Below, in pieces: positions 612 to 28,999 of a stretch of 32,000 nt of DNA. The stretch covers positions 2,340,001-2,372,000 of the forward strand of contig NC_010814.1 in NCBI RefSeq assembly GCF_000020385.1, in the 5' to 3' direction. The stretch is from Trichlorobacter lovleyi SZ (GTDB lineage Bacteria; Desulfobacterota; Desulfuromonadia; Geobacterales; Pseudopelobacteraceae). Within the stretch, counting starts at the first letter, position 1. Each line of letters begins with the position of its first letter. The position numbers and the translations under genes were made by a program. A model generated the notes under the pieces. That model had not been told where the DNA came from and made no database searches. It saw nothing but the letters and a program-made list of their open reading frames with translations.

Positions 612-1994
612 TCACTTCATCGGGGCGATTCTACTTCTTCCCATCCGCTTCAGCAACTTCCAAAGTGGTCCCCGCACCTTGAACATCCGCAACGCCTCCA
701 GCATGGTGTCGCTGATATTCACCTCCAGACCCGGTACAATCCAGTTTTTACGCTGCATTGCCTGTTCTGTCACAATCGTTGAAAGCCGGTCCCTGATGGC
801 CGGAGCCAGGTAAAAGGTAGGCTGCAGCAGATCTGTTTCAACGGTAATAATCCCCTCGTCCAGGGCGGTACGATACAGCCTGGTGCGGGGGTAGATCCGC
901 ACCCCGGTCATGGCAATGACGGCGGTAGGATTCAGTTCATCCATCAGCTGAAAGGTATCCAGAATGGTCTCTTCTGTCTCTCCTGGTCCGCCAAAGATGA
1001 TGTAGTGGGCAAAATCCAGCCCCGCCTCCCGGCAAAGCAGCGAGGCAGATCTGACCTGTCCGAGTGTAAACGATTTACAGAGACTTGTTAACATGCCAGG
1101 TGAACCGGAGTCAGTGCCGAACTCAATCGCATCGCAGCCGGCCCGCTGCATCAGATCCAGAAGCTGCGGTGTGATAAAATCCGGATTGATAAAGGCAGAC
1201 CAGTTAACCTGTAACCCGGCATCAATCATGGCTGTGCAGAGCTGTTCACAAAAGCTGACCGGGTAGTTAAAGATATCATCCACAAAATAGAGATAATCAA
1301 CACCATGATCATTCACCAGACTGCGGATCTCGGCAATAATCTCAGCCACCGGTCTGGTCCGCATCTGCTGGCCTTCCAGCAGCGGATAGGTGCAGTAACT
1401 GCAACCAAAGGGACAGCCCCGTTTGGTCTGCAGATTGGCCATGCCCCCTTCCTTCAGGTAGCGGGCCACATCAAACAGCTCCCGATCAGGACTGCCGATT
1501 CTGGAAACTGTTTGCGGCGGGATAAAGTCGATTTTCCCCGGCAGCACAACACCGGGCAGATCAGCCGGATCAATCCCTTGTGCCAGCCGGTCCAGCAGAA
1601 GGGGCAGCTGCTGCTCCCCCTCCCCCACCAGACCGATATCAGCACCGCAGGCAGCCAGGATCTCCAGCGGCATCAGGCTGAAACCTGAACCACCCACAAT
1701 GACGGTTGCCCTGCCTTTGCAGACCGTTACCAGATCAGTCAGACCGGACAGATAGGAACGGGCATCAGGCCAGGTAACATTATCCAGATTACGCAGCGAA
1801 ATGATCACCGCCTCAGGCTGTTCAGCAACAACCGTTGCCTGGAGCGCAGCAAGGGGATCGGCTTCAAAACAGAGATCCAGCACTGCCAACTGATGACCGG
1901 CCTGTTTGAGCGGGGCTGCCAGAAAGGCCAGACCAAGGGGAAAGACCGGATAGGGGGAACGCTCCCGGTTTGCCGAAACCAGCAGCAGCTTCAT
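612..1994 (-). CDS. Cobalamin(B12)-binding-domain radical SAM protein (lipid-cluster type)
   Basis: 460 aa. The N-terminal region is B12-binding-like (MKLLLVSANRE...AVIISLRN). The radical SAM cluster motif is RGCPFGCSYCTYP (CxxxCxxC). Its ATG at 1992-1994 overlaps the TGA of the upstream thioesterase gene (ATGA). Confidence 0.85.
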   Translation of the reverse strand: MKLLLVSANRERSPYPVFPLGLAFLAAPLKQAGHQLAVLDLCFEADPLAALQATVVAEQPEAVIISLRNLDNVTWPDARSYLSGLTDLVTVCKGRATVIVGGSGFSLMPLEILAACGADIGLVGEGEQQLPLLLDRLAQGIDPADLPGVVLPGKIDFIPPQTVSRIGSPDRELFDVARYLKEGGMANLQTKRGCPFGCSYCTYPLLEGQQMRTRPVAEIIAEIRSLVNDHGVDYLYFVDDIFNYPVSFCEQLCTAMIDAGLQVNWSAFINPDFITPQLLDLMQRAGCDAIEFGTDSGSPGMLTSLCKSFTLGQVRSASLLCREAGLDFAHYIIFGGPGETEETILDTFQLMDELNPTAVIAMTGVRIYPRTRLYRTALDEGIITVETDLLQPTFYLAPAIRDRLSTIVTEQAMQRKNWIVPGLEVNISDTMLEALRMFKVRGPLWKLLKRMGRSRIAPMK

Positions 1995-2422
1995 CGGCAG
2001 ACACCTTCATCCAGCCAGGCCCGCATGTTGGCCACCCTCTGTTCCACTTCCACCGGCAGACGATACTGCAGTACGCCGTTCATATCGGTCAGTGCATGGC
2101 AGACCAGACCAGTGGCCAGCCGCTGACCATCGACAGACAGCATCTCACAGCGAAAACGCAGCATGGCCGCTGCATCATCCTCCAGCCAGGTTCGAATCGT
2201 GACGACATCATTAAACAGGGCAGGCCGCAGGTACTTCAGTTCAAGTGACACCACCGGCCCCTGATAGCCCAAGGCCAACAGGTCATCCGGCCCAAGGCCG
2301 AACTGGCCGGACAGGTTATTGCGGCCGATTTCCATCCAGGCCACATAATGGCCGTGCCAGGCCACCTGATAGCTGTCCACCTCATTGAATCTGACCGTGA
2401 TTTCTGTTTCATCCCAACTCAT
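1991..2422 (-). CDS. Hotdog-fold acyl-CoA/acyl-ACP thioesterase (4HBT/YbgC-like)
   Basis: 143 aa. The N-terminus, VRFNEVDSYQVAWHGHYVAWMEIGR, is typical of 4HBT-type thioesterases. Its ATG at 2420-2422 overlaps the hsdR TGA at 2419-2421. Confidence 0.8.
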   Translation of the reverse strand: MSWDETEITVRFNEVDSYQVAWHGHYVAWMEIGRNNLSGQFGLGPDDLLALGYQGPVVSLELKYLRPALFNDVVTIRTWLEDDAAAMLRFRCEMLSVDGQRLATGLVCHALTDMNGVLQYRLPVEVEQRVANMRAWLDEGVCR

Positions 2423-5418
2423 GCCGGTGCAACCGGTTTCGGTGGTTCACAAGCTACATTCGTCATGGCAAACACCATATCTGAGACACTCCGCTTAAAA
2501 GATTCATTCTCAACAAACTGCTTGTAGGCCTCGGTATCATCCTTGAGCAGTGACAGCATGACCCGCGCCAACGCCTTGTCATGCTCCAGGCGGGCAGCAT
2601 TCGGGGTATTCTGTTTGGCGTTCCGGTAAGCCTGATCAGCTGCCACTTTAGGAGCGACATCATCCTGGATACGCTTTGCAACACGATCAACATCGCTAAA
2701 CAGGGTACCGAACTGTTCGTTGAACGATTTAAGGATATTGGTGAGCTTATCCATATCAGGCTGCGGTTTTCCACCACCACCGCCTACCGGTATTGGATCG
2801 ATTTCTGCTTCTTCATCTGCAAGGATGATGTTCATAACAGCCTGTTTTTCGGTACGATAGCTATCCATATCAATGGATTCCAGTATCCCCTTGGAGAGAT
2901 CCTCCTCTTGGGGGGCAGGCAGTTTTGGTATCAAAAAGGACAGGAAGATGGAGAGTTTTTCCCAATCAACATCGCTATAAGGCAAAATAGAAGACAGGAA
3001 TTCATAGGTGCGTGTAAACGCCTTGGCCTTGCCCTTGAAATCAATCTGGGCATCCTCATGCAACTCCTCAATATAAACCGCCACACAGGCGTCCAACAGT
3101 GGGTCTAACTTGTCACGTTGAGCGCCACCAAGATACAGCCCTACCAGCTCATCCACAACTGCCGCACGGTAGACGTGATAGTTGTCCAGTACCGCCTTCA
3201 GGTCATGAAGCTTGTTAGGGTCAGTCTCTTCACTCAAGACCGTAGTGCGGTAATAATCGGCAAAGGCGGCCTGAATCGTGTCAGCGTCATTCATAAAATC
3301 CAGCACAAACACGTCGTGTTTGCGAGGATGGGCACGATTCAACCGCGACAGGGTCTGCACTGCCTTGATGCCGGAGAGGGTCTTATCCACATACATGGTA
3401 TGTAGCAGCGGCTCATCATAGCCGGTTTGAAACTTATCGGCGCAAACCAGAATGCGGTACGGGTCTTCCTGAATTTTGTCTGCGATGTCTCCACTGGGGA
3501 AGCCATTCAGGGATGCCTCAGTAACCTTCTGACCTCGAAAATCATACTCACCGGAAAACGCAACAATGGCCTGGTATGGACTTTTCTGCTCCTCCAGGTA
3601 GGACTTAATGGCATGGAAATACTGGATAGCGCGCTCTATACCGTTGCAGACCACCATGACACGGGCCTGCCCACCGATCTTACCCTTGGCAATAACCTGC
3701 TCGCGGAAGTGATCCACCATGATCTCTGCTTTCAGCCGAATGGCGTGATCATGGCTTTCAACATACCGGCGCAGCTTTTTCTGGGCCTTGTTCTTGTCAA
3801 ACTCGGGGTCGTCTTTAACCTTCTTGATCAACTTGTAATAGCTGTTAACCGGGGTATAGCTTTTGAGCACATCCAGGATGAATCCCTCCTGAATCGCCTG
3901 TTTCATGGTGTAACAGTGGAATGGGCGATGCTTGACCTTCCCCTCTTCGCCCGGATACGGCTCACCAAATATCTCCAGCGTCTTGTTCTTGGGGGTGGCG
4001 GTGAAGGCGAAGTAGCTGGCGTTGGTAAGCATCTTCCGGGCCGCCATCCGTTTTTCCAGTACATCGTTGATCTCGTCTTCAGGGTCGGTCAGGGCTGCGT
4101 TCAATGCCCCGGCAGCCTTCCCCCCCTGGCTGGAGTGTGCTTCATCGATGATGATGGCAAAGCTCCGCCCCCGGTGCTCATCACCGATCTCATTCAGGAT
4201 ATAGGGGAACTTTTGCACCGTGCTGATGATGATCTTCTTGCCGGATTCTATGAACTTCCGCAGGTCGCCGGAGTGCTCTGCGTGCCCCACGGTGGAGCCA
4301 ACCTGCATGAAGCCCTTGATGGTGTTTTTGATCTGATCATCGAGAATGCGGCGGTCAGTAATGACGATGATTGAGTCAAAGAGATCCTTCCCGTCCTTGC
4401 GCAAAGCGACCAACTGATGGGCCAGCCAGGCGATGGAGTTGGACTTGCCGCTGCCAGCCGAATGTTGGATCAGATAACGCTGCCCCACGCCTTGCTTCAG
4501 CGCATCGGCCAGCAACCGCCGCACCACATCCAACTGGTGATACCGGGGAAACACCTGTTTGCGGGATTTCTTACGGGTTTTGGGGTTTATCTCTTCAACA
4601 ATCTGGGCATAGTTCTCAATGATGTCAGTAACGCCCTGAAGGGTAAGAACCCGTTTCCAGAGGTAGTCGGTCTTGAGGCCGTGCGGATTGGGCGGATTCC
4701 CGGCACCGTCATTCCAGCCCAGGTTGAACGGCAGGAACCATGAACCCTTTCCCTTAAGCTCGGTACACATCTGTACCTCACGGTCATCCACCGCAAAATG
4801 GACGATGCAGCGACCGAAGCTGAACAGCCGCTCCCGAGGATCGCGGTCCCGGCGGTACTGCTCAATGGCGTCCTCCACCGTCTGCTTGGTCAGGCTGTTC
4901 TTCAGTTCAAAGGTGGCAATGGGCAGGCCGTTGATGAACAGAGCAAGATCCAATGCCCGGCGGGTTTCATCACGACTGTAGCGGAGTTGTCGGGTGAGGC
5001 TGAAACGGTTGGCAATGTACAACTGGGCTGCCTTGTCATTACCAGGGGATGGGCTGCCATAGAAGAGGTCGATATGGTACTTCTCGTGCTTTACCCCTTT
5101 GCGCAGCAGGTCAATCACCCCACGCCTGGCGCATTCAGACTCTACACGGGCCAGAAACCGGCGGCGTACCGGCGTGTCCTTCTCCAGTTCAAGAGCAGTG
5201 GCGATCTCCGGTTGGGTTGCCTCTACAAAGGCATGCAACTGTGTCACATCAACGCAGTATTCCCGATCATAGTCACGGGCATCACCCAACAACCAGCCGG
5301 TACCGCCAAACGGCTCAACCGGATCATGCACACCACCAGCCGCAACAACTGCGGTTCGGCCGGTCATGGTGGTGCAGATCAGATCCTCCAGGCCACGCTC
5401 ACTGGTATCAGTGGTCAT
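2419..5418 (-). CDS. hsdR: Type I restriction enzyme R subunit
   Basis: 999 aa. The N-terminal PD-(D/E)xK-like nuclease motif is DLALFINGLPIATFELKN. The helicase Walker A motif is HSAGSGKSNSIAW and the DEAH box is IIIDEAHSSQ. Helicase motif VI-like QTLSRLNR is present, and the long C-terminal domain is typical of HsdR. Its ATG overlaps the darG TGA (ATGA at 5415-5418). Confidence 0.93.
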   Translation of the reverse strand: MTTDTSERGLEDLICTTMTGRTAVVAAGGVHDPVEPFGGTGWLLGDARDYDREYCVDVTQLHAFVEATQPEIATALELEKDTPVRRRFLARVESECARRGVIDLLRKGVKHEKYHIDLFYGSPSPGNDKAAQLYIANRFSLTRQLRYSRDETRRALDLALFINGLPIATFELKNSLTKQTVEDAIEQYRRDRDPRERLFSFGRCIVHFAVDDREVQMCTELKGKGSWFLPFNLGWNDGAGNPPNPHGLKTDYLWKRVLTLQGVTDIIENYAQIVEEINPKTRKKSRKQVFPRYHQLDVVRRLLADALKQGVGQRYLIQHSAGSGKSNSIAWLAHQLVALRKDGKDLFDSIIVITDRRILDDQIKNTIKGFMQVGSTVGHAEHSGDLRKFIESGKKIIISTVQKFPYILNEIGDEHRGRSFAIIIDEAHSSQGGKAAGALNAALTDPEDEINDVLEKRMAARKMLTNASYFAFTATPKNKTLEIFGEPYPGEEGKVKHRPFHCYTMKQAIQEGFILDVLKSYTPVNSYYKLIKKVKDDPEFDKNKAQKKLRRYVESHDHAIRLKAEIMVDHFREQVIAKGKIGGQARVMVVCNGIERAIQYFHAIKSYLEEQKSPYQAIVAFSGEYDFRGQKVTEASLNGFPSGDIADKIQEDPYRILVCADKFQTGYDEPLLHTMYVDKTLSGIKAVQTLSRLNRAHPRKHDVFVLDFMNDADTIQAAFADYYRTTVLSEETDPNKLHDLKAVLDNYHVYRAAVVDELVGLYLGGAQRDKLDPLLDACVAVYIEELHEDAQIDFKGKAKAFTRTYEFLSSILPYSDVDWEKLSIFLSFLIPKLPAPQEEDLSKGILESIDMDSYRTEKQAVMNIILADEEAEIDPIPVGGGGGKPQPDMDKLTNILKSFNEQFGTLFSDVDRVAKRIQDDVAPKVAADQAYRNAKQNTPNAARLEHDKALARVMLSLLKDDTEAYKQFVENESFKRSVSDMVFAMTNVACEPPKPVAPA

Positions 5419-6482
5419 GCGCTACCTGCCAATGACGGTATCCAGCCTTTTTTCGATAGCATGAACACAGCCAGAGCTATTTGCCGTGGGGTAAACTGAC
5501 GCTTACGGTCATTCCAACCATAAACCCGCGCTGTGACTTCCTCCAGTGAACAGGCTTGCTCCTGGCTTACCACCCAATGCACCGTTGCCAACAGCTCCAG
5601 GCCAAAGGGGGTTTCAAACCCTTCTACCAGTTCAAAGACACGGTTCATCCGGTTAACCGTATCCGGCTGTTCTTGCAGGAATGTTTGCGCATCCACCAGG
5701 GCACCCGGTACCAACTCCAACTGTTTATCCGGCGCATCACCGCCATCAGCGTAGCCCGAGACCAGATGTCCCTCTACAGCCCGCAAGACATGCCGCAGGT
5801 TTTCGGCATAGGGACCATAAGGAGCCTTGGTGTAATTCAGTCGTAGCGGTTCCTGTGCTGCCTGCATAAAGTACATCAACTTGTGTACCTCCAGCAGGGT
5901 AATGAAGGGGTCCAACAGCCCTGCCAGATAGCGGTGCATCAGCCCCACCAGTGCAGCCCGGCCTGGTGTCATCTTCGGAACATCGCTGGAGCGGTTCGCA
6001 CGCTCATCAGCCTTATCAGGAGCCGGTTCAAAGATGACCACCCGCAGCCCCTCAACCCCTTGCAAAGCGGCTTCAATACGGGGACGCACCTGCTTCCAGT
6101 CCAATCCGCCAAGACCGGCGCCCAACGGTGGTATGGCAATAGAGCTGATCTTGCGTATTCTGATCTCTTCAACCAAGGCCACCAGACCTGCATCTATATC
6201 TTCTATTCGACTCTTGGCCTTCCAATGTCGTTTGGTTGGAAAATTGATAACAAAACGTGGATTGGTGAGACGACCGGTTTCATACACAAACATCCGCCCC
6301 GGTTGCACTTCATTCAGCTTGCAGGCCGCAGCATAGGCCTTGAAGTTGTCCGGATAGGTGTTCTTAAACTGCAGGGCAATCCCCCGTCCCATGATACCGA
6401 CGCAGTTTACGGTGTTCACCACTGCCTCAACATCCTCGGCCAGTATGTTACCGGTTTTGTATTCAATCATGGCTTGCCTCAT
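5415..6482 (-). CDS. darG: DarG-like macrodomain antitoxin (ADP-ribosyl-DNA glycohydrolase)
   Basis: 355 aa. The N-terminal macrodomain signature is MIEYKTGNILAEDVEAVVNTVNCVGIMGRGIALQFK...IAIPPLGAGLGGLDW. The C-terminal domain of about 190 aa fits DarG. The gene lies immediately downstream of a DUF4433/DarT gene. An alternative start is the ATG at 6468-6470 (MIEYK...), which has a GAGG 6 nt upstream. Confidence 0.85.
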   Translation of the reverse strand: MRQAMIEYKTGNILAEDVEAVVNTVNCVGIMGRGIALQFKNTYPDNFKAYAAACKLNEVQPGRMFVYETGRLTNPRFVINFPTKRHWKAKSRIEDIDAGLVALVEEIRIRKISSIAIPPLGAGLGGLDWKQVRPRIEAALQGVEGLRVVIFEPAPDKADERANRSSDVPKMTPGRAALVGLMHRYLAGLLDPFITLLEVHKLMYFMQAAQEPLRLNYTKAPYGPYAENLRHVLRAVEGHLVSGYADGGDAPDKQLELVPGALVDAQTFLQEQPDTVNRMNRVFELVEGFETPFGLELLATVHWVVSQEQACSLEEVTARVYGWNDRKRQFTPRQIALAVFMLSKKGWIPSLAGSA

Positions 6483-6488
6483 AACGGT

Positions 6489-7130
6489 CTAATAATACCA
6501 ATTCTGCATCAATTCTACACGAGGTTTATGGGTTGATGCTGCAATGGCTGCACTGGCCTGCGCGTGAGTCTGCGTTGTCATCACGCCTATCCGGGTGACC
6601 AGTTCCCACGGAAACCGCTGTTCAATCAAAAACTCGGCCTGCTTGCCTTCTTTACATTTTTGCCAGTTGGTGGCTTCTACGGCCTGCCAGTCAATATCCC
6701 CAAGCCGGTCAAGATTGCTACGGTCTTCAAAATAATACGCACCGGCATTAGACAGCGTAAAGGCCCATCTCAGGTTTTGTGATTCAGCCCAGGCAACCGT
6801 CTGATGCAGATCTGCTTCCAGATGCACAATTGGGGCTTGTCCGCCACGATAGGTCAGTTCAGGATCGTTGGCCCGCCAGATAAGATACAGCATGACTGAG
6901 CGCGGACAAAAATAAAACGGCACACAATCGCCCACATTCAATCCAAAGTGGCTGGACAGAAATAGCTCGTTAAGACGTCTCTGCTTGATAGTCCCCATAC
7001 CGATGGTTGTGCCGGGCGGTTTGCTGCGCACAATCTCCGCATCACACAGCAGACCGTTGCTGGCAATGATTGATGTCAGGCGGTCAACATGCACGATATG
7101 ATAGATTTTGGGACGATCAGGAATAGCCAT
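6489..7130 (-). CDS. darT: DarT-like DNA ADP-ribosyltransferase toxin (DUF4433)
   Basis: 213 aa. The N-terminus (IYHIVHVDRLTSIIASNGLL) is DUF4433-like and the C-terminus (KQAEFLIEQRFPWELVTRIGV) retains the catalytic-type Glu. It is paired with the macrodomain gene 6 nt downstream. Its ATG shares one base with the hsdS TAA (TAATG). Confidence 0.85.
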   Translation of the reverse strand: MAIPDRPKIYHIVHVDRLTSIIASNGLLCDAEIVRSKPPGTTIGMGTIKQRRLNELFLSSHFGLNVGDCVPFYFCPRSVMLYLIWRANDPELTYRGGQAPIVHLEADLHQTVAWAESQNLRWAFTLSNAGAYYFEDRSNLDRLGDIDWQAVEATNWQKCKEGKQAEFLIEQRFPWELVTRIGVMTTQTHAQASAAIAASTHKPRVELMQNWYY

Positions 7131-8515
7131 TATGACTCATCCTCTGCATCTAAGCCATTATCATCCAGTTCGGCAGTTTCACCACAATCCTGCAGTGTTG
7201 CAAGCTCTTCCAGTTCATCCGGCAGTCGCGCCGCTGCCTGCCGAACATCCAGCTTGCCGGTGACCACATCGGCGATCAGACGGGTGCGGTATTCGCGGAG
7301 CAGGTCGATTTCACGTTCTGTACTTGCGATAACAGTGTTTATGACCAACAACTCTTTATCAAGATACTGCATAATCTCGTATTGTTCGTCGAGCGGAGGT
7401 ACTGGAACACGGATGTCATAAAAATCATCCGTATAGAGACGCCAGAAGCCTTGAACTATTCCCTTTGCTCGCTTACGCAGCTCAACCCTGCATGCTGGCG
7501 TTCTATACATAGCCTCAAAATAACGGGCGACCATTGGCCGTGCAGGGCGAAATACAGTGTAGTCTGGACTTATGAGACCTTGTCCAGGCGCGAGAGCGAA
7601 TACCCCTAAATGAGCCTTAAGTCTGTTAAGCACTAGATCACCGGATCTGCATAGTTTAGCGCCTACATATGATTCTGAGACAAGGCGTCGTTCCTCTATC
7701 TGCGAGTTTGGAATAAGTCCATACTTCTGGCTCATTGATAGATGGGTTTCAGTCCCTGTAACGGAACGTTCATCTACCTCATGAAAGACATACTTCGACC
7801 TGAGATCTTCCCAATGCCCTGGTATATCCCCCAACCACGGAATACCCGAAGGTTTCAGTTGCACATTTGGATCAAGGCCACGGGTGACGGCACGGTGGAT
7901 GATGACCTGCTTCTGCTCGTTCAGCAGCGCAATCACCTTCCGTTTAGCCCGGATAGCCTTTTCGATGCGCAGATTGGCATGGTTGAGGAAACGGACAATG
8001 CTTGTCTGTTCGTCGATGGGAGGTATTGAAAGCGGTAGCCGCTTGAAGTCAGAGTAATCAAGGTTCTGCCGGAGACCAGAACCCAGGCCATACAAGATCT
8101 TCGTTAGATCAAGTGTGTGTAGTAATTGGTACCCATACTCAGGCATTAGGGTCTCGGTGACCTTCATACACATATATGCCGAAGTAATGATCCCGCGATT
8201 CTTGACGATCCCTACCCGGAGGCTTGTTTTGTCGTTCTGTAGGTCGGTAGACCGGATAATAATGTCACCTGGATCAACGATCTGGTATGTTTCAAATGAC
8301 TCCGGGACCAAACCATGCAGCTTGTCTTCTGGCTTTACAATGATCCTTCCATAGCTCAATGAAAGGACCGTCTTCTCCTGCAGGCCTGTATTCTTTACCT
8401 TCTTCTCTCTGAAGGCAGAGAATCCAGGACCAGAATGCCAGTGGCTCGGTACATCGCCCAACCATGCCAATTCTGACTCCCGGTACTCCGGATATGGCTT
8501 CAGTTCGGCAATCAT
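7130..8515 (-). CDS. hsdS: Type I restriction-modification specificity subunit
   Basis: 461 aa with two target-recognition halves. Each half is followed by a conserved coiled region: LSIPPIDEQTSIVRFLNHANLRIEKAIRAKRKVIALLNEQKQVIIHRAVTRGLD and VPVPPLDEQYEIMQYLDKELLVINTVIASTEREIDLLREYRTRLIADVVTGKLD. It overlaps the hsdM stop (ATGA). Confidence 0.9.
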   Translation of the reverse strand: MIAELKPYPEYRESELAWLGDVPSHWHSGPGFSAFREKKVKNTGLQEKTVLSLSYGRIIVKPEDKLHGLVPESFETYQIVDPGDIIIRSTDLQNDKTSLRVGIVKNRGIITSAYMCMKVTETLMPEYGYQLLHTLDLTKILYGLGSGLRQNLDYSDFKRLPLSIPPIDEQTSIVRFLNHANLRIEKAIRAKRKVIALLNEQKQVIIHRAVTRGLDPNVQLKPSGIPWLGDIPGHWEDLRSKYVFHEVDERSVTGTETHLSMSQKYGLIPNSQIEERRLVSESYVGAKLCRSGDLVLNRLKAHLGVFALAPGQGLISPDYTVFRPARPMVARYFEAMYRTPACRVELRKRAKGIVQGFWRLYTDDFYDIRVPVPPLDEQYEIMQYLDKELLVINTVIASTEREIDLLREYRTRLIADVVTGKLDVRQAAARLPDELEELATLQDCGETAELDDNGLDAEDES

Positions 8516-10848
8516 GCTGCATTACCCTTCAACAGATCATCCAGCAGCCCTTCCGCCTCCTGCTCCACCGCCAGGATGTCGGCACGAATCTCTTCCAGGG
8601 TCCGCAACGGTTGCGGTTTGTAGAAATGCCGGGTAAAGCTGATCTCATAACCGATCTTGGTCTTGGACTCATCCAGCCAGGCATCCGGTGTATAGGGCAG
8701 CACCTCCCGCTGAATAAACGCCTCAATACCGCCATCCTCCAACAGCGGCACCTGCTCAGTATCACGCAGGTCGGTATCCGGCTCGTACTCAACCACGCAT
8801 GCTTTACCGTCTATGGTTACGGGATACAGCCCCCGCAACGGATCAGGTGTGGCCTTGCCCGGCTTGTGCAGCCTGGCGATAACCGGTGGCGCTGTTTCCA
8901 CCCGCCAACTGACTGCCTTGAGGATCAGCTTCAGCTCAGCGGCAGGCAGCTTACGGCCCAGTTTCTTCAGGGCGGTGTCAACATCAATGCGGAAGCGGTT
9001 GTGATCCTCATACAGATCGCCACCCAGCAGATCCCGCAGTGACTGGGCAGTTTCCATCAGCCGGGCATCACGCGCCCAGGTTCCGGCATCCAGCAGCTTT
9101 TTCTTTTTCTTCTCTGAGAGGCCCTTGCGGGGGGCTTCGTCGTCTTCCCCTTCGTCATCGCCTGCACCCCATTCAGCCAGGCGCTTGGCCAGTTCTTTCT
9201 CTATGCTGCTGAACTGTTCAAACAGGACATCACCAAACTCCTCATACAACTGCGTCCGAATCTCCTCATCCCCGGAGGCAAAACGTAATGACTCAATGGC
9301 CGGAAGGGATAACTGACTGTGCAGGCGCAGCGGGCGCTCCACCGTGACCTTCCAGTAGCCGAATGCCTTGTTCTGAAAAATCTTTGACTGCTCTGATTCA
9401 GTGAAGGATTGATAGGTGTCGCAGATGCGCTGGATATCATCATCGGACAGCTCGCAGTTCTTCTTGCCCAGGTTCTTGCGTAACGGCTTGAACCAGGCGG
9501 TGGCATCGATCAGCTGTACCTTGCCCTTGCGGTGATCCGGCTTACGGTTGGACAATACCCAGATATAAGTGGCAATGCCGGTGTTGTAGAACAGGTTAAG
9601 CGGCAGGGCTACAATGGCCTCCAGCCAGTCTTTCTCAATGATCCAGCGCCGGATGTTGCTCTCCCCCTGACCTGCATCGCCGGTGAATAATGAGGAACCG
9701 TTGTGGACTTCGGCAATCCGACTGCCCAGCCGGGATGTGTGGTTCATCTTGGCAACCATGTTGGCCAGAAACATCATCTGACCATCGCTGGAGCGGGTTA
9801 TCAGGGAATAGTCAGTATCATCGGCATGGGTGATCTTGAAACGGGAGTCACGGATGCCGTCCTTGCCCCCCATGGTGTCCAGGTCTTTTTTCCAGCTCTT
9901 GCCGTAGGGCGGATTGGAGAGCATGAAATCAAATTCATGGGCCGGGAAGGCATCGTGCGCCAGGGTAGACCACTCAGCACCGCCCACAATATGGTCGGCG
10001 TTTTCTCCTTCACCTTTCATCAGCATATCAGCCTTGCAGATGGCGTAGGTTTCAGGGTTGATCTCCTGGCCGAACAGGTAGGTCTTCACCTGTTTGTCCT
10101 GGGCAGCGGTCAGCTCCAACAAGGTTTCTTCAGCCAGGGTCAGCATGCCGCCGGTACCGCAGGCCCCGTCATAGAGCTGGTACGAACCAGACTGCACCTG
10201 ATCGGCAATCGGCAGGAAGATCAAGCGAGCCATCAACTTGACGGCATCACGGGGTGTCCAGTGTTCACCGGCCTCTTCGTTGTTGTCCTCATTGAACTTA
10301 CGGACCAGCTCTTCAAAGACCGTCCCCATGGAGTGGTTATCCATGGCTGGAAGCCGTACCGAGCCGTCGCTGTTCAGCACCGGATTGGGACTTACGTTGA
10401 TGTCGGGATCAAGGAACTTTTCAATCAGGGTACCGATGGCATCGGCCTTGGACAGAGTGCTGATCTGGTTGCGAAACTTGAAGTTTTCCAGAATATCCTG
10501 GACGTTCTGCGAAAACCCGTCCAGATAATCCTCAAAATCAAGTTTGAGTTGCTGTTGGTTGGCACGGGAGCGCAGATCACGCAGGGTGAATCTGGAGGTG
10601 TTATAGAAAGCCTGTCCGGCTGCCTCGCACAGGGCTGCCTTCTGCTCGGTAATCCCGGCATCATCCAGCATCTGTTTGGTATCCAGTACTGCCTGCTTGG
10701 TTGGTTCCAGTACGGCATCCAGACGACGCAGTACACACATCGGCAGGATTACATCAGGGTACTTGCCCCGCTTGAACAGGTCGCGTAGCACATCATCGGC
10801 AATGCCCCAGATAAAGGAGACAATCTTGTTGTGGGTGGCTTGATCCAT
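8512..10848 (-). CDS. hsdM: Type I restriction-modification N6-adenine DNA methyltransferase subunit
   Basis: The N-terminus is HsdM_N-like (NKIVSFIWGIADDVLRD). The AdoMet motif is YDGACGTGGML and the catalytic motif is MLSNPPYGKSW. I place the start at the ATG at 10846-10848. The track start at 10851 is a TTG one codon upstream. A C-terminal extension of about 270 aa follows the methylase core. Confidence 0.93.
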   Translation of the reverse strand: MDQATHNKIVSFIWGIADDVLRDLFKRGKYPDVILPMCVLRRLDAVLEPTKQAVLDTKQMLDDAGITEQKAALCEAAGQAFYNTSRFTLRDLRSRANQQQLKLDFEDYLDGFSQNVQDILENFKFRNQISTLSKADAIGTLIEKFLDPDINVSPNPVLNSDGSVRLPAMDNHSMGTVFEELVRKFNEDNNEEAGEHWTPRDAVKLMARLIFLPIADQVQSGSYQLYDGACGTGGMLTLAEETLLELTAAQDKQVKTYLFGQEINPETYAICKADMLMKGEGENADHIVGGAEWSTLAHDAFPAHEFDFMLSNPPYGKSWKKDLDTMGGKDGIRDSRFKITHADDTDYSLITRSSDGQMMFLANMVAKMNHTSRLGSRIAEVHNGSSLFTGDAGQGESNIRRWIIEKDWLEAIVALPLNLFYNTGIATYIWVLSNRKPDHRKGKVQLIDATAWFKPLRKNLGKKNCELSDDDIQRICDTYQSFTESEQSKIFQNKAFGYWKVTVERPLRLHSQLSLPAIESLRFASGDEEIRTQLYEEFGDVLFEQFSSIEKELAKRLAEWGAGDDEGEDDEAPRKGLSEKKKKKLLDAGTWARDARLMETAQSLRDLLGGDLYEDHNRFRIDVDTALKKLGRKLPAAELKLILKAVSWRVETAPPVIARLHKPGKATPDPLRGLYPVTIDGKACVVEYEPDTDLRDTEQVPLLEDGGIEAFIQREVLPYTPDAWLDESKTKIGYEISFTRHFYKPQPLRTLEEIRADILAVEQEAEGLLDDLLKGNAA

Positions 10849-11690
10849 CAATTCGCCTCACTGTCTATCCAGCGGTTAAACTTGGTCAGGGCCTGGCCGC
10901 TGCCCACCTCTATGCAGCGGTTGAAACCGGTGGCACGAACCGCCTTCCAGGTCCGCTCCCAGTAAACCGGCTGCTGCAGCTCATCAACCAGGAAGGCAGG
11001 GATAGCAGCGGCGGTCAGACGGGTTTGAGCAAGTGACTCAATCAGCGGAATCTGCGGTTCTGCAAAATGATACTCAGCAACAATCGCTGCCAGATCAGCA
11101 GCAACCCCGGCCATCAGCGGTGTATGCAGCGGGGCTTCGCAGGGAAAGCTGCTGACACTGAAGGCACCTTGCGCCTGACACTCTGCCAGGGCGGCTTCAA
11201 TCCCCTGTTGGGGACCGGCCAGCAGGAAGTGACGGGAGGTATTGTAATTTGCCACAAAGACTCCGTTATTACGGGCTGCAGACTCTAGCGGAGCAGCCTG
11301 CAGGCCGATGACACAGCCCAAGGCATAGGTGGCGGCGGCACTCATCCGGGCCATGCTGCTGCCGATCCGGCAGACCAGCTCCAGGGCCTCCTGTTCACCG
11401 ATACTGTTTGCGGCAGCCAGCGCGGCGTAAATCCCCAGGGAGTGCTCGGCAATCAGGGCGGGACGGCAATCTTCGCTGCGCAGCCTTCTGCTCCGGTAAA
11501 GTGACATGGCCACACCGTAAATCTGCAGGCAGGTATGATGGCTCAGCTGGCAGCCGCTGAGCGGCTGATGGGAGACCAAGTCGTAGCCGCAGCACTCCCG
11601 GCACAGTTCGGCAATGGCGCGGAAGTCTGCATCGTCCGGTGTACTCTGTTCCCACTGCAGCGGCTGTCCGGGAAAGGCCCAGAGTATCAT
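10848..11690 (-). CDS. FabD-like (malonyl-CoA:ACP transacylase family) acyltransferase
   Basis: The nucleophile elbow AEHSLGIYAALAAA compares with FabD GHSLGEY. Also present are FPGQ-like WAFPGQPLQW near the N-terminus and PLHTPLM, a His-containing C-terminal motif. I prefer the ATG at 11688-11690 because it overlaps the TGA of the upstream radical SAM gene (ATGA). The track ORF extends to 11774. Confidence 0.65.
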   Translation of the reverse strand: MILWAFPGQPLQWEQSTPDDADFRAIAELCRECCGYDLVSHQPLSGCQLSHHTCLQIYGVAMSLYRSRRLRSEDCRPALIAEHSLGIYAALAAANSIGEQEALELVCRIGSSMARMSAAATYALGCVIGLQAAPLESAARNNGVFVANYNTSRHFLLAGPQQGIEAALAECQAQGAFSVSSFPCEAPLHTPLMAGVAADLAAIVAEYHFAEPQIPLIESLAQTRLTAAAIPAFLVDELQQPVYWERTWKAVRATGFNRCIEVGSGQALTKFNRWIDSEAN

Positions 11691-13114
11691 GGGGCACCTC
11701 CTGTTCCCGCCGGGCAGCTGGCACGGTATTCCTTCATATATTCCGCAGGTTTCATCATCCGCTGGGTGCGCCACAGGACCCGGATGATGTACGGGATCTG
11801 GGAAGGGCGCACCTGTCTGACCCAGTCCATGATCCCCTTGTCTCCGGCAGTATTCAGGATTGAACGGCGCCAGGTCTCGGCATACAGCTCAAAAAACCGT
11901 TCAGGCCCCAGCCTCGGTTCCCAGAGCAGATGGTGCATGTCAAAGTTTGACCAAGGCTGACCAGCGGTTCGGTGGGCAACAGTACGGTAATAGTCGGTGC
12001 CGGGCAAGGGGGTCAGGATGGTGAATCCGGCCCGTTGCAGACCGTACTGTTCCACAAACCCCCAGAGCTGCCTGAAGCCCTCCTCGTCCCAGTCAGGATC
12101 AACCAGGAAATTGCCGTTGATGCCATACTTCAGCTCCCGGGCAATCCGTACCGCCTCAATGCTTTCTTTGATGCCGCTGTCTTTGTCCAGACCGGACAGC
12201 CCGTTGTCACTGGCCGCCTCCAACCCCAGAAAGATGTCAAAGTCCTTTGCCAGGGGGCGCCAGGCCGCCATGATAGCGGCGCTTCTGCAGATCAGGTCGG
12301 TGCGGGTCTGGACAAGTATCCAGCGTTTATAGACCCCGCGCTTCTTGAGCGCCGCTGCCAGTTCCAGGGAGCGGGCCGGATTGTACCAGAACAGATCGTC
12401 GGCCACAAAAACCGCATCACCGCTGGTGGCAAAGTCCTCCACCACCGCCGCAATGGAACGCTCCCGGCAGGTACGGTCGTACAGCTGCCAGACCGAGCAG
12501 AAGGAGCAGCGGTGGGGGCAGCCCCGGGCGGTCTCGATCAGCCAGACCGGCTTGAACAGCAGGCAGTGGTAGCCGTTGCGGTACTGCCTGACCAGATCAC
12601 GGGCAGGCAGCGGCACCAGATCCAGTGCCGGACGTTCCTCAAGCCGGGGGGTACTCTGCCAGCCGTCCGGTCTGCGCAGCCGCAACCCCGGCACCTGGTC
12701 CAGCGGTTCCCCCCGCTCCAGACAGCCTGCCAGCAACGGCATCAGACTCTCCCCATCCTCCACCATCACGGCATCAACCACATTGTTTTCCAGCGGTCCG
12801 GAGAAGGCCGCAGCAGCGTGTCCCCCCACGATGATGAATACTTCCGGCGCCAGACGCCGCACCTCACGGGCGGTTGCCAGCACCTGCTCGAACTCAAGGG
12901 TATGCAGACAGCTGATGCCGACCAGTCGGGGCCGTGAGCGGCGCAGCACCGTGGCAAGCCCGGGACGGAAGCGCAGGTCGGCAATCGTGACCTGATGATG
13001 GTCCTGCAACAGGGCTGCAGCGATATATTCAAGGCCCAGCGGTTCAACACAAAAGAACGGTCCCAGACCGAACTTGTCATGACCGGGATGGGGGCGCAGC
13101 AACAGAATGTTCAT
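11687..13114 (-). CDS. Cobalamin-binding-domain radical SAM protein
   Basis: 475 aa. The B12-like N-terminal domain is followed by ARGCPHRCSFCSVW (CxxxCxxC) and ILTPLPGT. It shows ATGA overlap with the upstream gene. Confidence 0.85.
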   Translation of the reverse strand: MNILLLRPHPGHDKFGLGPFFCVEPLGLEYIAAALLQDHHQVTIADLRFRPGLATVLRRSRPRLVGISCLHTLEFEQVLATAREVRRLAPEVFIIVGGHAAAAFSGPLENNVVDAVMVEDGESLMPLLAGCLERGEPLDQVPGLRLRRPDGWQSTPRLEERPALDLVPLPARDLVRQYRNGYHCLLFKPVWLIETARGCPHRCSFCSVWQLYDRTCRERSIAAVVEDFATSGDAVFVADDLFWYNPARSLELAAALKKRGVYKRWILVQTRTDLICRSAAIMAAWRPLAKDFDIFLGLEAASDNGLSGLDKDSGIKESIEAVRIARELKYGINGNFLVDPDWDEEGFRQLWGFVEQYGLQRAGFTILTPLPGTDYYRTVAHRTAGQPWSNFDMHHLLWEPRLGPERFFELYAETWRRSILNTAGDKGIMDWVRQVRPSQIPYIIRVLWRTQRMMKPAEYMKEYRASCPAGTGGAP

Positions 13115-14391
13115 GTTGTTTTCTCCTCCCTGCCGTAAATCCCGCCCCGCCGCAGGAGGTTGTACAACAGGTTGACCCCTTTGCCGGGGCTCTGCATGAC
13201 CCGTCCGGCAATCGCAGGCCAGCGGTAGGCCTCTTGGCGGGCCTGTACCCAGCCATTGTATAGACGTTCAGGAGACATCTGCTTGGGCTGATATACCACC
13301 TGACCATGGTCATAGCGCTGCCAGTCAGTATGCAGCAACCTCCCCTCCTGCTGAAACTGCGAGAACAGCGCAGTGCCGGGATAGGGGGTCAGAATATGAA
13401 AGGTGGGCAGGCTGGCTGCACAGTTTTCCAGGTAACGCACGGTTCGCTCAAACACTCCTGCATCATGATCGTCAAATCCAAAGATAACCGAGGCCTCCAC
13501 CACCACGCCGGTATCCCGGACCCGCTTGATCAGGTCAGCCTGGGAGGTCTTGCCGGCGGTCTTGGGGAGGTTGGCATACTCGCCATCCACAGATTCAAGC
13601 CCCACAAAAATACCGACACAACCGGAGGCAGCCAGCAGCCGGACCAGTTCCGGGTCTTCAGCAAAACGCAGGTTGGCTTGTCCGCCCCACTTCAACCCCA
13701 TACCGGCCATCCCACGCAGGATCGGCTTGGCCCGTTCCGGGTCCCCCAGGATATTGTCATCCAGAAACACCATCAGACCTGGCTTGAAACTCCTCAGTTC
13801 TGCCAACACATCCTCCGGCTCACGGTAGCGAAAGGTACGTCCGAAGTGGGGGGTAACCGTACAGAAGGGACAGTTGTAGGGGCAGCCGCGGCTGGCCTGC
13901 AGGGTCCTGGTGGTCAGATATTTACGGGGGGCCAGGAAATCATGGCGTGACCAGGGAATGGACAACTGATCCCCCTCCGGCAGCACCTGATAGAACGGCT
14001 GTAACTGTCCCTGTTGCAGATCATGCAGCAAAGCGGCCCAGACCGGCTCGGCCTCCCCCAGCACCACGCTGTCGGCATGTTTGATCGCCTCATCCGGCAG
14101 CACCGTGGGATGGATCCCCCCCAGCACCACCGGCACCCCCCGTGCGCGAAAGCGATCCGCAATCCGGTAGGCCCGCACCGCCTGATGGGTCATGGCCGTG
14201 ATCCCAACCAGGTCATAGTCACCATCAAAATCAATTTCTTCCTGCACCTCGTCAGCAAGCAGCACCTCCCATTCAGGCGGTGTGGCAGCGGCGACCTGCT
14301 TAAGAGACAGGGAAGGCAGCTGAAATCGCTTGACCCAGCCCAGTTTATGGGTGGCAGGGTACACCAGCAGCAGACGGGGTTTTACGGTCAT
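13111..14391 (-). CDS. Cobalamin-binding-domain radical SAM protein (paralog of 14388-15674)
   Basis: 426 aa with SRGCPYNCPFCTV, GLKW, CVGIFVGLES and ILTPYPGT. It aligns along its whole length with the 428-aa neighbour. It shows ATGA overlap with the upstream gene. Confidence 0.85.
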   Translation of the reverse strand: MTVKPRLLLVYPATHKLGWVKRFQLPSLSLKQVAAATPPEWEVLLADEVQEEIDFDGDYDLVGITAMTHQAVRAYRIADRFRARGVPVVLGGIHPTVLPDEAIKHADSVVLGEAEPVWAALLHDLQQGQLQPFYQVLPEGDQLSIPWSRHDFLAPRKYLTTRTLQASRGCPYNCPFCTVTPHFGRTFRYREPEDVLAELRSFKPGLMVFLDDNILGDPERAKPILRGMAGMGLKWGGQANLRFAEDPELVRLLAASGCVGIFVGLESVDGEYANLPKTAGKTSQADLIKRVRDTGVVVEASVIFGFDDHDAGVFERTVRYLENCAASLPTFHILTPYPGTALFSQFQQEGRLLHTDWQRYDHGQVVYQPKQMSPERLYNGWVQARQEAYRWPAIAGRVMQSPGKGVNLLYNLLRRGGIYGREEKTT

Positions 14392-15674
14392 GCATCGGCC
14401 CGTTTTTTTCGGATGGCGGAGCGGAAGCCGATATTCATCGGACCAAAGACCTGGACAGAACGGTGCAGCTTGAAGATACGGCGGTAGATGGAGCCCCAGG
14501 AGTAGAAACTGCGGCAGGCCTGATCATAGCCGTCCTGCAGTTGTTGGACCGTCATCCCCCGAGGCTGGAAGGTAACATGCTCCATATCGTAATCCTGCCA
14601 GTTATTGCTGATAATCCGCCCTTCAGCCTCAAGTCTCTGTCGCACCTTGGTACCGGGATAAGGGGTCAGGATCGGGAAGATGGCGGCCTCAAGCCGGGCA
14701 TCTTCGCAGAAGCGCAGGGTCTGTTCAAAGACCGCCGGAGTATCGCCATCGCAACCCATCACAAAGGAGCCCAGGATGCCGATGCCGTGATCCCGAAACT
14801 GCTGGGCATAGGCTTTGTAGGACGCAGCCTTGTTGGTTACCTTGCCCATGGCTGCCAGAGAGTCCTGATTCAGCGATTCAAAACCGACGAACATGCCGAC
14901 ACAACCGGATTCACCGGCAGCCTTTAAGAGCTCTTGATCTTCTGCAAAATCAATCGGGGCGTGGGAGAGCCACTTCAGGCCCATCCCCTTCATCCCCTCA
15001 AAGAGCGGTAAGGAATAACGCCGGTCAGCCACGATGTTGTCATCCACAAAAAAGACAAAGGAGTTGGCCTTACGCAGTTCCTGCAGTTCGGCCAGCACCT
15101 GCTCCAGTGGACGTTTGCGGTATTTGCGCCCGTAAAAGGCGGTGACCGAGCAGAACTCGCAATCAAAGGGACAACCGCGGGTAGTCTGGATGGTATTGGT
15201 AAAGAGATGACCGGAACCTTTGAAGATCTCCCGCCTGGCCTGGGGAATCAAGGCTGTGTCTATCAGCCCGTCTGCCCGATAAAGCCGCTGCAGTTGACCC
15301 GCCTGAAAGTCTGCTAACAACCGGGGCCAGACCAGCTCCCCCTCTCCCACCACGACACTATCCACATGCTGCAGCGACTCATCCGGCAGGTTACTGGCGT
15401 GAAAGCCCCCCATCACCACCGTCTTGCCACGGCTGCGAAAGGCATCCGCCAGCTGGTAGGCACGGGTTGCCTGGGCGGTCATGGCGGTCAGGGCGATCAG
15501 GTCTGCATCGGTATCAAAGTTAGTTGCACGGACAGCATCATCATGAAAGCTGACATCCCAATCCTGAGGAGTAACCGCAGCCAGGGATGCCAGTGACAGG
15601 GTGGGAAATTTAAAGCCCAGTTCTCCCCACAACCGACCTTTGGGCCAACCAGGGGAGAGAAAGAGAATTTTCAT
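14388..15674 (-). CDS. Cobalamin-binding-domain radical SAM protein (paralog of 13111-14391)
   Basis: 428 aa with TRGCPFDCEFCSV, GLKW, CVGMFVGFES and ILTPYPGT. Confidence 0.85.
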   Translation of the reverse strand: MKILFLSPGWPKGRLWGELGFKFPTLSLASLAAVTPQDWDVSFHDDAVRATNFDTDADLIALTAMTAQATRAYQLADAFRSRGKTVVMGGFHASNLPDESLQHVDSVVVGEGELVWPRLLADFQAGQLQRLYRADGLIDTALIPQARREIFKGSGHLFTNTIQTTRGCPFDCEFCSVTAFYGRKYRKRPLEQVLAELQELRKANSFVFFVDDNIVADRRYSLPLFEGMKGMGLKWLSHAPIDFAEDQELLKAAGESGCVGMFVGFESLNQDSLAAMGKVTNKAASYKAYAQQFRDHGIGILGSFVMGCDGDTPAVFEQTLRFCEDARLEAAIFPILTPYPGTKVRQRLEAEGRIISNNWQDYDMEHVTFQPRGMTVQQLQDGYDQACRSFYSWGSIYRRIFKLHRSVQVFGPMNIGFRSAIRKKRADA

Positions 15675-15689
15675 CAGCTGTTCCGGTGG

Positions 15690-15947
15690 CTACTTGCCGT
15701 TTTCAGCGATGTAACCGGCCATAGCCCGCACAGAGGCAAACACCTTGGTACCGGTTGCAGCATCAGGCACCACAACACCAAAATCCTTTTCCATTGCCAC
15801 CACCAGCTGCAAGGCATCTATGGAGTCAAGCCCCAGTCCTTCACCGAACAGGGGGGCATCACTGTCAATCTCGTCCGCAGACATCCCCTCAATCCGCAGG
15901 GCATCAATAATCATCTGTTTTACTTTGGGAATCAGCTCATCACTCAT
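15690..15947 (-). CDS. Acyl carrier protein
   Basis: 85 aa and acidic. The phosphopantetheine attachment motif is LGLDSIDALQLV. It overlaps the upstream acyltransferase gene by 8 nt. Confidence 0.85.
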   Translation of the reverse strand: MSDELIPKVKQMIIDALRIEGMSADEIDSDAPLFGEGLGLDSIDALQLVVAMEKDFGVVVPDAATGTKVFASVRAMAGYIAENGK

Positions 15948-18230: not shown

Positions 18231-18241
18231 TGGCCGCCTCT

Positions 18242-18904
18242 CTACATGTATCTCAGGAATGTCATACAGATATTCCAGGTATCCTGCACCGGACGATAAT
18301 GGCTGGTGGCCCGTCCGTCGGCAACCCGTGCCGGAACCGGCAGCGAACCGATCTTAAAACCGGCCTTCCAGCCCTTCACCAGCAGTTCCATCTCCAGATC
18401 ATAGCCATCTTTTTCAAGCCTCACCGCACGCAGCAGCCTGGCATGGTAAAAACGAAAACCGGACTGGCTATCGGTAATTTCAAATCCGGTCCGTTTACGG
18501 ATGCACCAGACACCAAAACGGTTCCAGACCTTGCGCAGGCCTGCCATTTCTTCAAATTGACTATGCCGGGATGCGAGAAGACAATCATAACCTTTTTTGT
18601 CAGCTTCAGCAAGTAACCGTGAAATAGCGCTGGGATCATGCTGGCCATCGGCATCAAGGGTGACGACTCCATCATACTGCTGCTGGATTGCCCAGGCAAA
18701 ACCGGTCTTGAGGGCAGCCCCCTTGCCCCTGTTGACCGGATGGCTCAACAGGGTGACCGGCAGCCCGTCAAGGGTTTCAGCCGTAGCGTCAGTGGAACCG
18801 TCATCAACCACAACAAGCGGGTAGCCGTGTGTCAGTGACTCCAGCACCACCTCTCTGAGTGTAGCGGCAGCATTATAGGCTGGTATCAGGATACAGGGGG
18901 ACAC
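18242..18904 (-). CDS. Family 2 glycosyltransferase (short, polyprenyl-phosphate/lipid-sugar transferase-like)
   Basis: 220 aa with ILIPAYNAA, VVVDDGSTD and TLDADGQHDP (DxD). It has a GTG start at 18902-18904 and overlaps the end of the deacetylase gene by 19 nt. Confidence 0.85.
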   Translation of the reverse strand: MSPCILIPAYNAAATLREVVLESLTHGYPLVVVDDGSTDATAETLDGLPVTLLSHPVNRGKGAALKTGFAWAIQQQYDGVVTLDADGQHDPSAISRLLAEADKKGYDCLLASRHSQFEEMAGLRKVWNRFGVWCIRKRTGFEITDSQSGFRFYHARLLRAVRLEKDGYDLEMELLVKGWKAGFKIGSLPVPARVADGRATSHYRPVQDTWNICMTFLRYM

Positions 18905-28855: not shown

Positions 28856-28999
28856 GCATCTTCTCCTTTGGTGGGATGAATACTGCTGGTGAACGTTAAC
28901 TGCCTGAAACTAAGTACATCAGCATAAAAATAAATAAAAATTACAAATCGATGTATACATACACAACATTTAACTTGTTTGCAACAATTTATCCATTCA

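Follow-up and report, generated by a model that had tools for sequence, protein, structure and literature searches.

How does a five-gene defence block come to stand in the middle of a lipid operon, with stop and start codons overlapping at both of its ends? The question is raised by a 32,000-nucleotide (nt) stretch of the Trichlorobacter lovleyi SZ genome (contig NC_010814.1, positions 2,340,001 to 2,372,000), here called the window, in which hsdM, hsdS, darT, darG and hsdR lie between a gene for a FabD-like protein and a thioesterase gene. The hsdM, hsdS and hsdR genes are those of a Type I restriction-modification (RM) system, and the darT/darG pair is a toxin-antitoxin module set within it. 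The original prediction, made from the sequence alone, offered two possibilities: either a foreign defence cassette had been fitted seamlessly into the operon, or defence and lipid genes are genuinely co-transcribed. We focus on the comparison with related genomes, from which it is near-certain that the 8.4-kb block is an insertion polymorphism inside one operon, transferred via its flanks. The best explanation of the locus, to which we assign a probability of about 0.75, is a horizontally acquired, strain-variable Type I RM system that carries DarTG2 between hsdS and hsdR and sits in a recurrent intra-operon slot. We found no published description of this insertion in the literature; the genome paper of the organism, there named G. 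lovleyi SZ, mentions islands with genes of COG classes L and V, and restriction genes are absent from its text (PMC3403914).

An alignment of the orthologous loci in related genomes had been proposed as the check on this arrangement. Where the block is absent, the FabD-like gene directly adjoins the thioesterase gene, so it is one operon that has been interrupted. Fourteen related loci, from Trichlorobacter relatives and from G. metallireducens, are empty in this sense. The adjacency is seen in L014-L016, L018, the metagenome loci L101, L104-L106, L108 and L109, L111/L112 and G. metallireducens L020, most of which have a 4-nt GTGA or ATGA overlap of the two genes, and also in L019, with a 5-nt gap, and L120, with a 1-nt TGATG overlap. 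Two of the empty loci, L014 and L018 (the latter from the complete genome CP058409), belong to T. lovleyi itself. Their FabD-like proteins are 94% and 88% identical to that of the window, both have the 4-nt GTGA overlap with the thioesterase gene, and synteny extends over the remaining operon, down to the genes for a ketoreductase, two ketosynthases, a dehydratase, LolA, LolB and MMPL. The FabD-like protein of the window ends in ..WIDSEAN, two amino acids (aa) shorter than the ..WIDSEAATL of the empty sites.

The cassette stands at the same position, 94-100% identical at the nt level outside hsdS, in the window and in L001-L013, L021, L102, L103, L110 and L113-L115, and L117 holds a more diverged cassette (hsdM 83% identical at the aa level) with a left junction identical to that of the window. 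At least seven distinct RM-DarTG alleles occur at this site. Junctions whose proteins are identical to those of the window were recovered from 12 independent assemblies, among them the metagenome of the KB-1 dechlorinating culture and GCA_047291845, and with such recurrence the arrangement is not an assembly artefact. Further afield, hsdM homologues of 60-80% aa identity are found in Acidobacteriota, Nitrospirota, Verrucomicrobiota, Gamma- and Betaproteobacteria, Actinomycetota and others. The empty sites and this spread of the cassette family across many phyla both support the first of the two possibilities, that of a foreign cassette placed seamlessly in the operon.

The flank to the right of the block records how the cassette travelled. 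Every filled allele has the same thioesterase 5' sequence beside the cassette, and this sequence is 50-70% identical at the nt level to the native T. lovleyi gene. In the window the donor-type segment shows 62-75% nt identity to the empty-site T. lovleyi alleles, measured over the 60-nt intervals that cover it, and is followed by a short interval within which the crossover lies (Table 1). Downstream of that interval, the window matches empty-site strains at 93-100%, and the radical SAM protein encoded next is 97% identical to theirs at the aa level. The switch from donor to native type falls at about nt 60-95 of the gene in the window, at about nt 180 in L113 and at about nt 330 in L102, L103 and L110, while L021 is donor-type throughout the 376 nt covered by its contig. 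Among empty alleles, L111 has the thioesterase nearest to the donor type, at only 80% protein identity. Mosaic flanks with three crossover points indicate that the cassette moved by homologous recombination through the lipid genes, and recombination of this kind requires no integrase, repeats or tRNA. The absence of insertion scars, which had been put forward as a puzzle, is therefore largely explained by the mosaic flanks together with the native TGATGA overlap of the operon, discussed below. The cassette thus came into T. lovleyi along with parts of the lipid operon of a more distant lineage and was re-assorted afterwards. The site has the features of a defence hotspot flanked by core genes: its cargo is variable or missing, and exchange occurs via the flanks.

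As had been claimed, there is no integrase, transposase, flanking repeat or tRNA at the edges of the block, a statement borne out by Pfam, repeat and tRNA scans. No match to integrase or transposase families was found by Pfam in the 25 open reading frames (ORFs) of the window that were scanned, which include every ORF within or adjoining the block. No repeat pair brackets 2419-10850, all pairs detected being at chance level (an asymmetric 14-nt pair, I25, among them). Terminal repeats, att-like sites and a target duplication were not found at the two junctions beyond the ATG that they have in common, and Rfam and tandem-repeat scans returned nothing relevant to the block. The sole tRNA of the window, a tRNA-Leu (anticodon taa) at 24643-24729 (+) between frdC and a pyridine-nucleotide oxidoreductase gene, is 13 kb off and unrelated to the cassette.

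Base composition adds little. The original prediction had contrasted 40-52% GC in parts of the block with about 70% in a lipid gene; the direction of this difference stands and its size does not, as the hand count rested on extreme single lines. Mean GC over 60-nt lines is 53.2% in the block versus 57.8% in the lipid flanks (Mann-Whitney p = 1e-8), with 51.6% in the remainder of the window and 54.8% for the SZ genome (PMC3403914). The composition of the block is genome-typical, and the actual outlier is the lipid operon (612-2418 and 10851-19737), which is slightly GC-rich. By GC at third codon positions (GC3) and an index akin to the codon adaptation index (CAI-like index), hsdM and hsdR lie within the native range, darT and darG deviate mildly and hsdS is the only clear outlier (GC3 0.51; CAI-like index 0.55, the lowest). 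A foreign origin argued from composition was accordingly set aside as weak: GC, GC3, the CAI-like index and dinucleotide distance single out hsdS alone. The insertion is proven by comparative genomics rather than by composition.

From 612 to 19737 every gene lies on the minus strand, and neighbours are joined by overlaps or by gaps of at most 15 nt. Read 5' to 3', the upstream part of the operon encodes a polysaccharide deacetylase/DUF3473 protein, a GT2 protein, a radical SAM-SPASM protein, an LpxL-like acyltransferase, an acyl carrier protein (ACP), three B12-radical SAM proteins and the FabD-like protein (Pfam), the nearest homologues of which are annotated as ACP S-malonyltransferase of Trichlorobacter lovleyi. 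There follow hsdM, hsdS, darT, darG, hsdR, the 4HBT thioesterase gene and a further B12-radical SAM gene (Pfam and PADLOC), beyond which the operon goes on.

Table 1. Features of the window at and around the RM-DarTG cassette
Feature	Position	Strand	Description and basis
Upstream lipid-operon part	11687..19737	-	Includes ACP gene 15690-15947; synteny kept in L014, L018, L111 and G. metallireducens L019
FabD-like malonyl-CoA:ACP transacylase	10848..11690	-	280 aa; Pfam Acyl_transf_1; last lipid gene ahead of cassette
Left junction TGATG	10846..10850	-	Sequence; all alleles compared
hsdM, Type I N6-adenine methyltransferase	8512..10848	-	778 aa; Pfam HsdM_N (PF12161) and N6_Mtase (PF02384)
hsdS, specificity subunit	7130..8515	-	461 aa; Pfam Methylase_S and PADLOC Specificity_I, full length
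darT, ssDNA ADP-ribosyltransferase toxin	6489..7130	-	213 aa; Pfam DarT (PF14487) 214 bits, full length; PADLOC DarT
darG, macrodomain antitoxin with C-terminal DarT-binding domain	5415..6482	-	355 aa; Pfam Macro, PADLOC DarG, full length
hsdR, Type I restriction/translocase subunit	2419..5418	-	999 aa; Pfam HSDR_N, SWI2_SNF2/ResIII, T1R_D3-like
Right junction ATGA	2419..2422	-	Sequence; L111 junction GTATGAGATGGGATGAAAC, L120 junction TGATGATCTGGG
Donor-type first ~19 thioesterase codons	2366..2422	-	Identical to other filled alleles; alignments, sliding identity
Crossover interval	2331..2365	-	Stretch common to donor-type and native-type thioesterase genes
4HBT-family thioesterase	1991..2422	-	143 aa, chimeric; Pfam 4HBT_2/4HBT; first lipid gene past cassette
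B12-binding radical SAM	612..1994	-	Pfam; 4-nt overlap with thioesterase gene

The gene identities and coordinates first given for the five-gene block are correct, with Pfam and PADLOC in agreement. HsdM matches PADLOC MTase_I at 855 bits over residues 2-773, and its start, MDQATHNK, is conserved across its family. HsdR consists of a PF04313 nuclease, a PF18766/PF04851 motor and a PF22679 C-terminal domain, and is recognised by PADLOC as REase_I. When the C-termini of 16 homologues were compared, the conserved HsdR core was found to stop at ..DMVFAMTN, with a 12-aa tail, VACEPPKPVAPA, extending to the TGA in the ATGA of the operon. By its domain content, namely HsdM, an HsdS with two target-recognition domains (TRDs) and HsdR, the block is predicted to be a complete Type I RM system. 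DarG, given 351 aa by other gene callers, has the PF01661 macrodomain at residues 22-134; its residues 4-154 match 5M3I/5M31 (E = 1.6e-51, the aligned positions being mostly identical or similar) and residues 171-338 match the DarT-binding chain 7YK3_B. On account of an antitoxin with a macrodomain rather than NADAR, the predicted pair falls into the DarTG2 class, which ADP-ribosylates thymidine (PMC11543638). Aligned to the Thermus DarT 7OMV, DarT keeps a Glu (KQAEFL) where the deposited chain has Ala (KQAAFL). We take this Ala to replace the catalytic E160 of Thermus DarT, a substitution made for crystallisation. Elsewhere G. lovleyi has a separate DarT1-NADAR (DarTG1) system, which was expressed and crystallised (PMC11543638); with the macrodomain pair here, the strain has both DarTG classes.

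The part of the cassette that varies is the one that would set its specificity. Between filled cassettes, nt identity falls to 32-60% in hsdS only, at the two TRDs, which appear as two low-identity blocks around a centre conserved at about 78%. Five hsdS alleles (those of the window, L021, L102, L110 and L113) share 34-50% aa identity, with their N and C termini conserved. TRDs are thus swapped between cassettes, which suggests that the DNA specificity of the RM system is shuffled within the population. The remaining four genes have all ORFs intact and dN/dS of 0.03-0.15 overall, with dS up to 0.2 (dN/dS 0.05-0.07 for hsdM, 0.06-0.12 for darT and 0.03-0.07 for hsdR). They are under strong purifying selection, and it is on this that the predicted RM function rests.

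Having established where the cassette sits, we turn to how it is joined to the operon. Both junctions read as first described. On the left, aatTGATGgat at 10850-10846 joins the TGA of the FabD-like gene to the ATG of hsdM with the A shared; on the right, ggcATGAgtt at 2422-2419 joins the TGA of hsdR to the ATG of the thioesterase gene. Within the block, where overlaps of 1-4 nt or a 6-nt gap had been claimed, the junctions are -4 nt (hsdM/hsdS), -1 nt (hsdS/darT), +6 nt (darT/darG; 18 nt when the start of the 351-aa darG is taken) and -4 nt (darG/hsdR). The stop of the upstream radical SAM gene and the start of the FabD-like gene form an ATGA of the same kind at 11690-11687. In the empty allele L111, the native thioesterase start is ATGAGATGGGATGAAAC, overlapped by the FabD stop, and the junction reads ..GCTGTATGAGATGGGATGAAAC; the ATGA of the right junction is thus the operon's own FabD-stop/thioesterase-start overlap. 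Comparison of all alleles places the GAGG found 7 nt ahead of hsdM at the position of the thioesterase Shine-Dalgarno sequence of empty alleles, so that the GGAG or GGAGG of the thioesterase gene stands before hsdM in the filled ones. In the window, the anti-Shine-Dalgarno duplex of the thioesterase gene has -2.9 kcal/mol versus -9.5 in empty alleles and is the weakest in the operon, as would be expected if its translation were coupled to the stop codon of hsdR.

These signals bear on how the cassette is expressed. The hsdM homologues found elsewhere have non-coding DNA upstream, whereas here there is 0 nt. Consensus scans for promoter- and terminator-like sites gave no enrichment over shuffled sequences and no site at either junction, such promoter scans being weak and confined to sigma-70 promoters. 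That a cassette lacking promoter DNA has persisted under purifying selection is an argument for its expression from operon transcription, and, since it came without upstream DNA, we lean slightly towards hsdM and the genes behind it being driven in this way. Under the horizontally acquired cassette that we prefer, the slot is the FabD-like/thioesterase stop/start overlap of a conserved Geobacteraceae lipid operon (fatty-acid/polyene-like), and the cassette moves among Trichlorobacter lineages along with short pieces of lipid genes. Transcription of hsdM would start from the lipid-operon promoter or from a cryptic one within the coding sequence of a lipid gene, its translation would use the former ribosome-binding site of the thioesterase gene, and expression of the thioesterase and downstream genes would depend on read-through and on coupling of translation to the stop of hsdR. 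Defence and lipid functions would otherwise be independent.

A likely form of the primary event can be read from a single empty allele. L120 reads GAG AAC ATC TGATGATCTGGG, with the junction also given as GAGAACATCTGATGATCTGGG, and the left flanks of two filled alleles, L021 (GAGAACAGCTGATGGATCAAG) and L119 (GAGAACTGCTGATGGATCAAG), match it up to the ATG. Were a segment beginning at the hsdM ATG inserted at TG^ATGA, the TGATG on the left and the ATGA on the right would both arise automatically; the event would have set the ATG of hsdM in place of that of the thioesterase gene within a native TGATGA junction. The thioesterase gene of this allele (L120:3095-3523) has an in-frame TAG at codon 14 (..RFN, stop, VD..) and is either a pseudogene or affected by a sequencing error.

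The RM cassette is not the only cargo found at this boundary. A PIN toxin-antitoxin pair is found there in L107, L116 and L118, composed of a 78-aa ORF and a PIN-domain toxin, the stop codon of which overlaps the thioesterase ATG. These pairs are 73-90% identical to each other at the aa level and have their own upstream region of 70-120 nt. In L119 the cassette is decayed (L119:4433-6587): nine codons of hsdM are followed by a C-terminal remnant of hsdS and then by hsdR, with a 488-aa AlbA_2 (Schlafen-like)/HATPase_c_4 gene in the place of DarTG. The 140-nt spacer ahead of this hsdR contains TAATTGATGGGTAATTGA twice, a candidate operator. The Ser codon of ..WIDSE.. is AGT in all three PIN alleles and in five of the six RM alleles, and TCG in every empty allele, which hints at a common ancestry of the filled left flanks. 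A direct replacement of the PIN pair by the RM cassette, suggested by a likeness seen by eye between the 12-aa tail of hsdR and the PIN 3' end, was rejected when local alignments were compared with shuffled sequences (p = 0.16-0.5). What is left to connect the PIN alleles with RM alleles of the window type is the AGT codon and a short AATT(T)G match, suggestive at most.

With such variety of content, the TGATGA overlap may be a true intra-operon cargo slot that repeatedly captures and swaps unrelated cassettes, guided by microhomology, with the promoterless RM system as a hitch-hiker and the two left-junction types as the outcome of repeated capture at the start codon; we regard this stronger statement as possible but doubtful. 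Several observations weigh against our preferred explanation. Two different 6-nt FabD tails stand ahead of the same TGATG-hsdM join: GCGAAT in the window, L102, L103, L110 and L117 (the hsdM of which is just 83% identical), and AACAGC or AACTGC in L021 and L119. Crossovers lying far off cannot give two FabD tails at the same join; either the junction was formed more than once, or exchange took place within the few bases of microhomology that the target (TGATGATC) shares with the start of hsdM (TGATGGATC). The microhomology model, in turn, is built on one empty allele, L120, with its interrupted thioesterase gene. Both the donor lineage and the primary insertion are postulated, and co-transcription and coupling would follow from spacer-less junctions and weak consensus scans. 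In L119, moreover, hsdM and the greater part of hsdS are gone, and the cassette is thus not always kept.

The two left-junction sequences are also an argument for a different view, in which the cassette is, or was, a discrete site-specific unit that targets TGATGA, by a recombinase encoded elsewhere or through the TGATGATC/TGATGGATC microhomology, and has entered several times independently. Both tails join the identical first nucleotide of hsdM, and they do not follow the relatedness of the cassettes, L117 (hsdM 83%) having the window-type junction and L021 (hsdM 98%) the other. The unrelated PIN pair likewise ends right on the thioesterase ATG. However, a site-specific unit would be one with no integrase or transposase and no att-like or terminal repeats, and with a target duplication that amounts at most to an ambiguous ATG; in other phyla, members of the same RM family have different neighbours and the usual non-coding DNA on either side. 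All filled alleles share one right junction, and the mosaics of the flanks point to homologous recombination. We therefore consider independent site-specific entry improbable.

It is less probable still that selection maintains the defence and lipid genes as one functional unit with adaptive co-expression, for example by coupling surface remodelling to immunity. The nesting has persisted under purifying selection through considerable divergence (dS up to 0.2; the L117 hsdM at 83% aa identity), and the design of the junctions keeps translational coupling at both sides. Against this, the cassette is present or absent among close relatives as well as related lineages, the same slot is occupied by the PIN pair or the AlbA_2/HATPase variant, one copy of the cassette has decayed, and in other settings the RM-DarTG layout works without neighbouring lipid genes (PMC12255303). 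Finally, a cassette ancestral in the clade, with the empty sites as precise deletions, would account for its presence in several diverged lineages (FabD-like proteins 65-100% identical) but is refuted by the mosaic flanks, as the foreign thioesterase segment beside the cassette in filled T. lovleyi alleles marks import. In addition, the site is empty in most lineages and in the outgroup G. metallireducens, where the 4-nt overlap is intact and the thioesterase gene keeps a Shine-Dalgarno sequence of its own, and a deletion that restores GTGA plus the native 5' codons is implausible.

The horizontally acquired cassette in a recurrent slot is thus the explanation to be set beside known systems. 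The original judgement that either possibility would be unusual is too strong, since DarTG within Type I RM systems (PMC5179494, PMC12255303) and RM systems within operon-like clusters (PMC2853133, PMC2993543) have both been published. Jankevicius et al. (2016; PMC5179494) noted DarTG pairs lying within Type I RM operons, and the RRDM island of enteropathogenic Escherichia coli (EPEC) has the order RptR - Type I RM - DarTG2 - M48, with an RptR-controlled promoter and flanking insertion sequence (IS) elements (PMC12255303). The block resembles these in its order, hsdM-hsdS-darT-darG-hsdR, and in its macrodomain DarG. Unlike the EPEC island, it has no RptR, promoter region of its own, M48 peptidase or flanking IS, and is fused start-to-stop into a biosynthetic operon. 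In nine complete homologous systems from other phyla DarTG lies between hsdS and hsdR, a tenth (L081) showing darT at the contig end, while in the remaining homologous systems other genes or nothing occupy this place.

Furuta et al. (2010; PMC2853133) described the insertion of RM systems into operon-like clusters with start/stop junctions and intact target genes, a subject later covered in the review of Ishikawa et al. (2010; PMC2993543). The present locus shares with those cases the lack of mobility genes of its own, intact target genes and alternative cargo. Those cases, however, are mostly Type II and often have long target duplications, whereas here a five-gene Type I system with DarTG has a duplication no longer than ATG and an overlap at each end, and its transfer between lineages by way of the flanks is directly evidenced. 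In Pseudomonas and E. coli, core-genome defence hotspots hold variable cargo between core genes, and this cargo is exchanged by flanking recombination. Conserved flanks, presence and absence, unrelated cargos, mosaic flanks and the lack of mobility genes are common to those hotspots and to this site; in contrast to them, the slot here lies within a single operon, at a stop/start overlap of 1-4 nt rather than between transcription units, and its RM cargo is promoterless. A looser comparison can be drawn with integron gene cassettes, where promoterless cargo likewise appears to use a resident promoter and alternative cargos share one slot. There is no integron integrase, attI, attC or non-coding recombination site here, and the PIN pair comes with upstream DNA; the analogy is a functional one only. 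What is less ordinary at this locus is the stop/start-overlap slot within an operon, the promoterless RM cargo and the alternative cargo at the same nucleotide position.

Some neighbouring features are recorded for completeness. Rattray et al. (2009) drew attention to radical-SAM-rich clusters resembling fatty acid synthases (FAS-like) in Geobacter, and the lipid operon is of the same sort, resembling aryl-polyene or ladderane-type FAS-like clusters. Its radical SAM copy number varies: three B12-radical SAM paralogues stand in tandem ahead of the FabD-like gene in T. lovleyi (11687-15674, minus strand) versus one in G. metallireducens (L019:8718-10004). Between frdB and the lipid operon lies an orphan Cas6-like gene (20022-20891, minus strand; PF10040, PADLOC Cas6 1e-39; AF_1859_N in relatives), which L014, L018 and L111 have at the same position; the window contains neither a CRISPR array nor a further cas gene. 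A BrnA-antitoxin-like ORF (PF14384; 29261-29623, minus strand) stands beside a ferritin-like gene in the lowest-GC stretch of the window (28500-30500, 0.43-0.46) and may be another small toxin-antitoxin insertion.

The locus offers a natural example of a defence system that lives and travels without mobility machinery, with conserved host genes as its recombination arms; because it entered where a stop and a start codon overlap, the interrupted operon stays translationally intact. If the biosynthetic promoter alone drives the cassette, searches for defence islands that are confined to intergenic hotspots would miss slots of this kind, and the expression of immunity could be tied to an unrelated metabolic programme, that of envelope-lipid regulation. 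For G. lovleyi as a bioremediation organism, the cassette would be a strain-variable barrier to genetic manipulation, with five predicted hsdS specificities in circulation.

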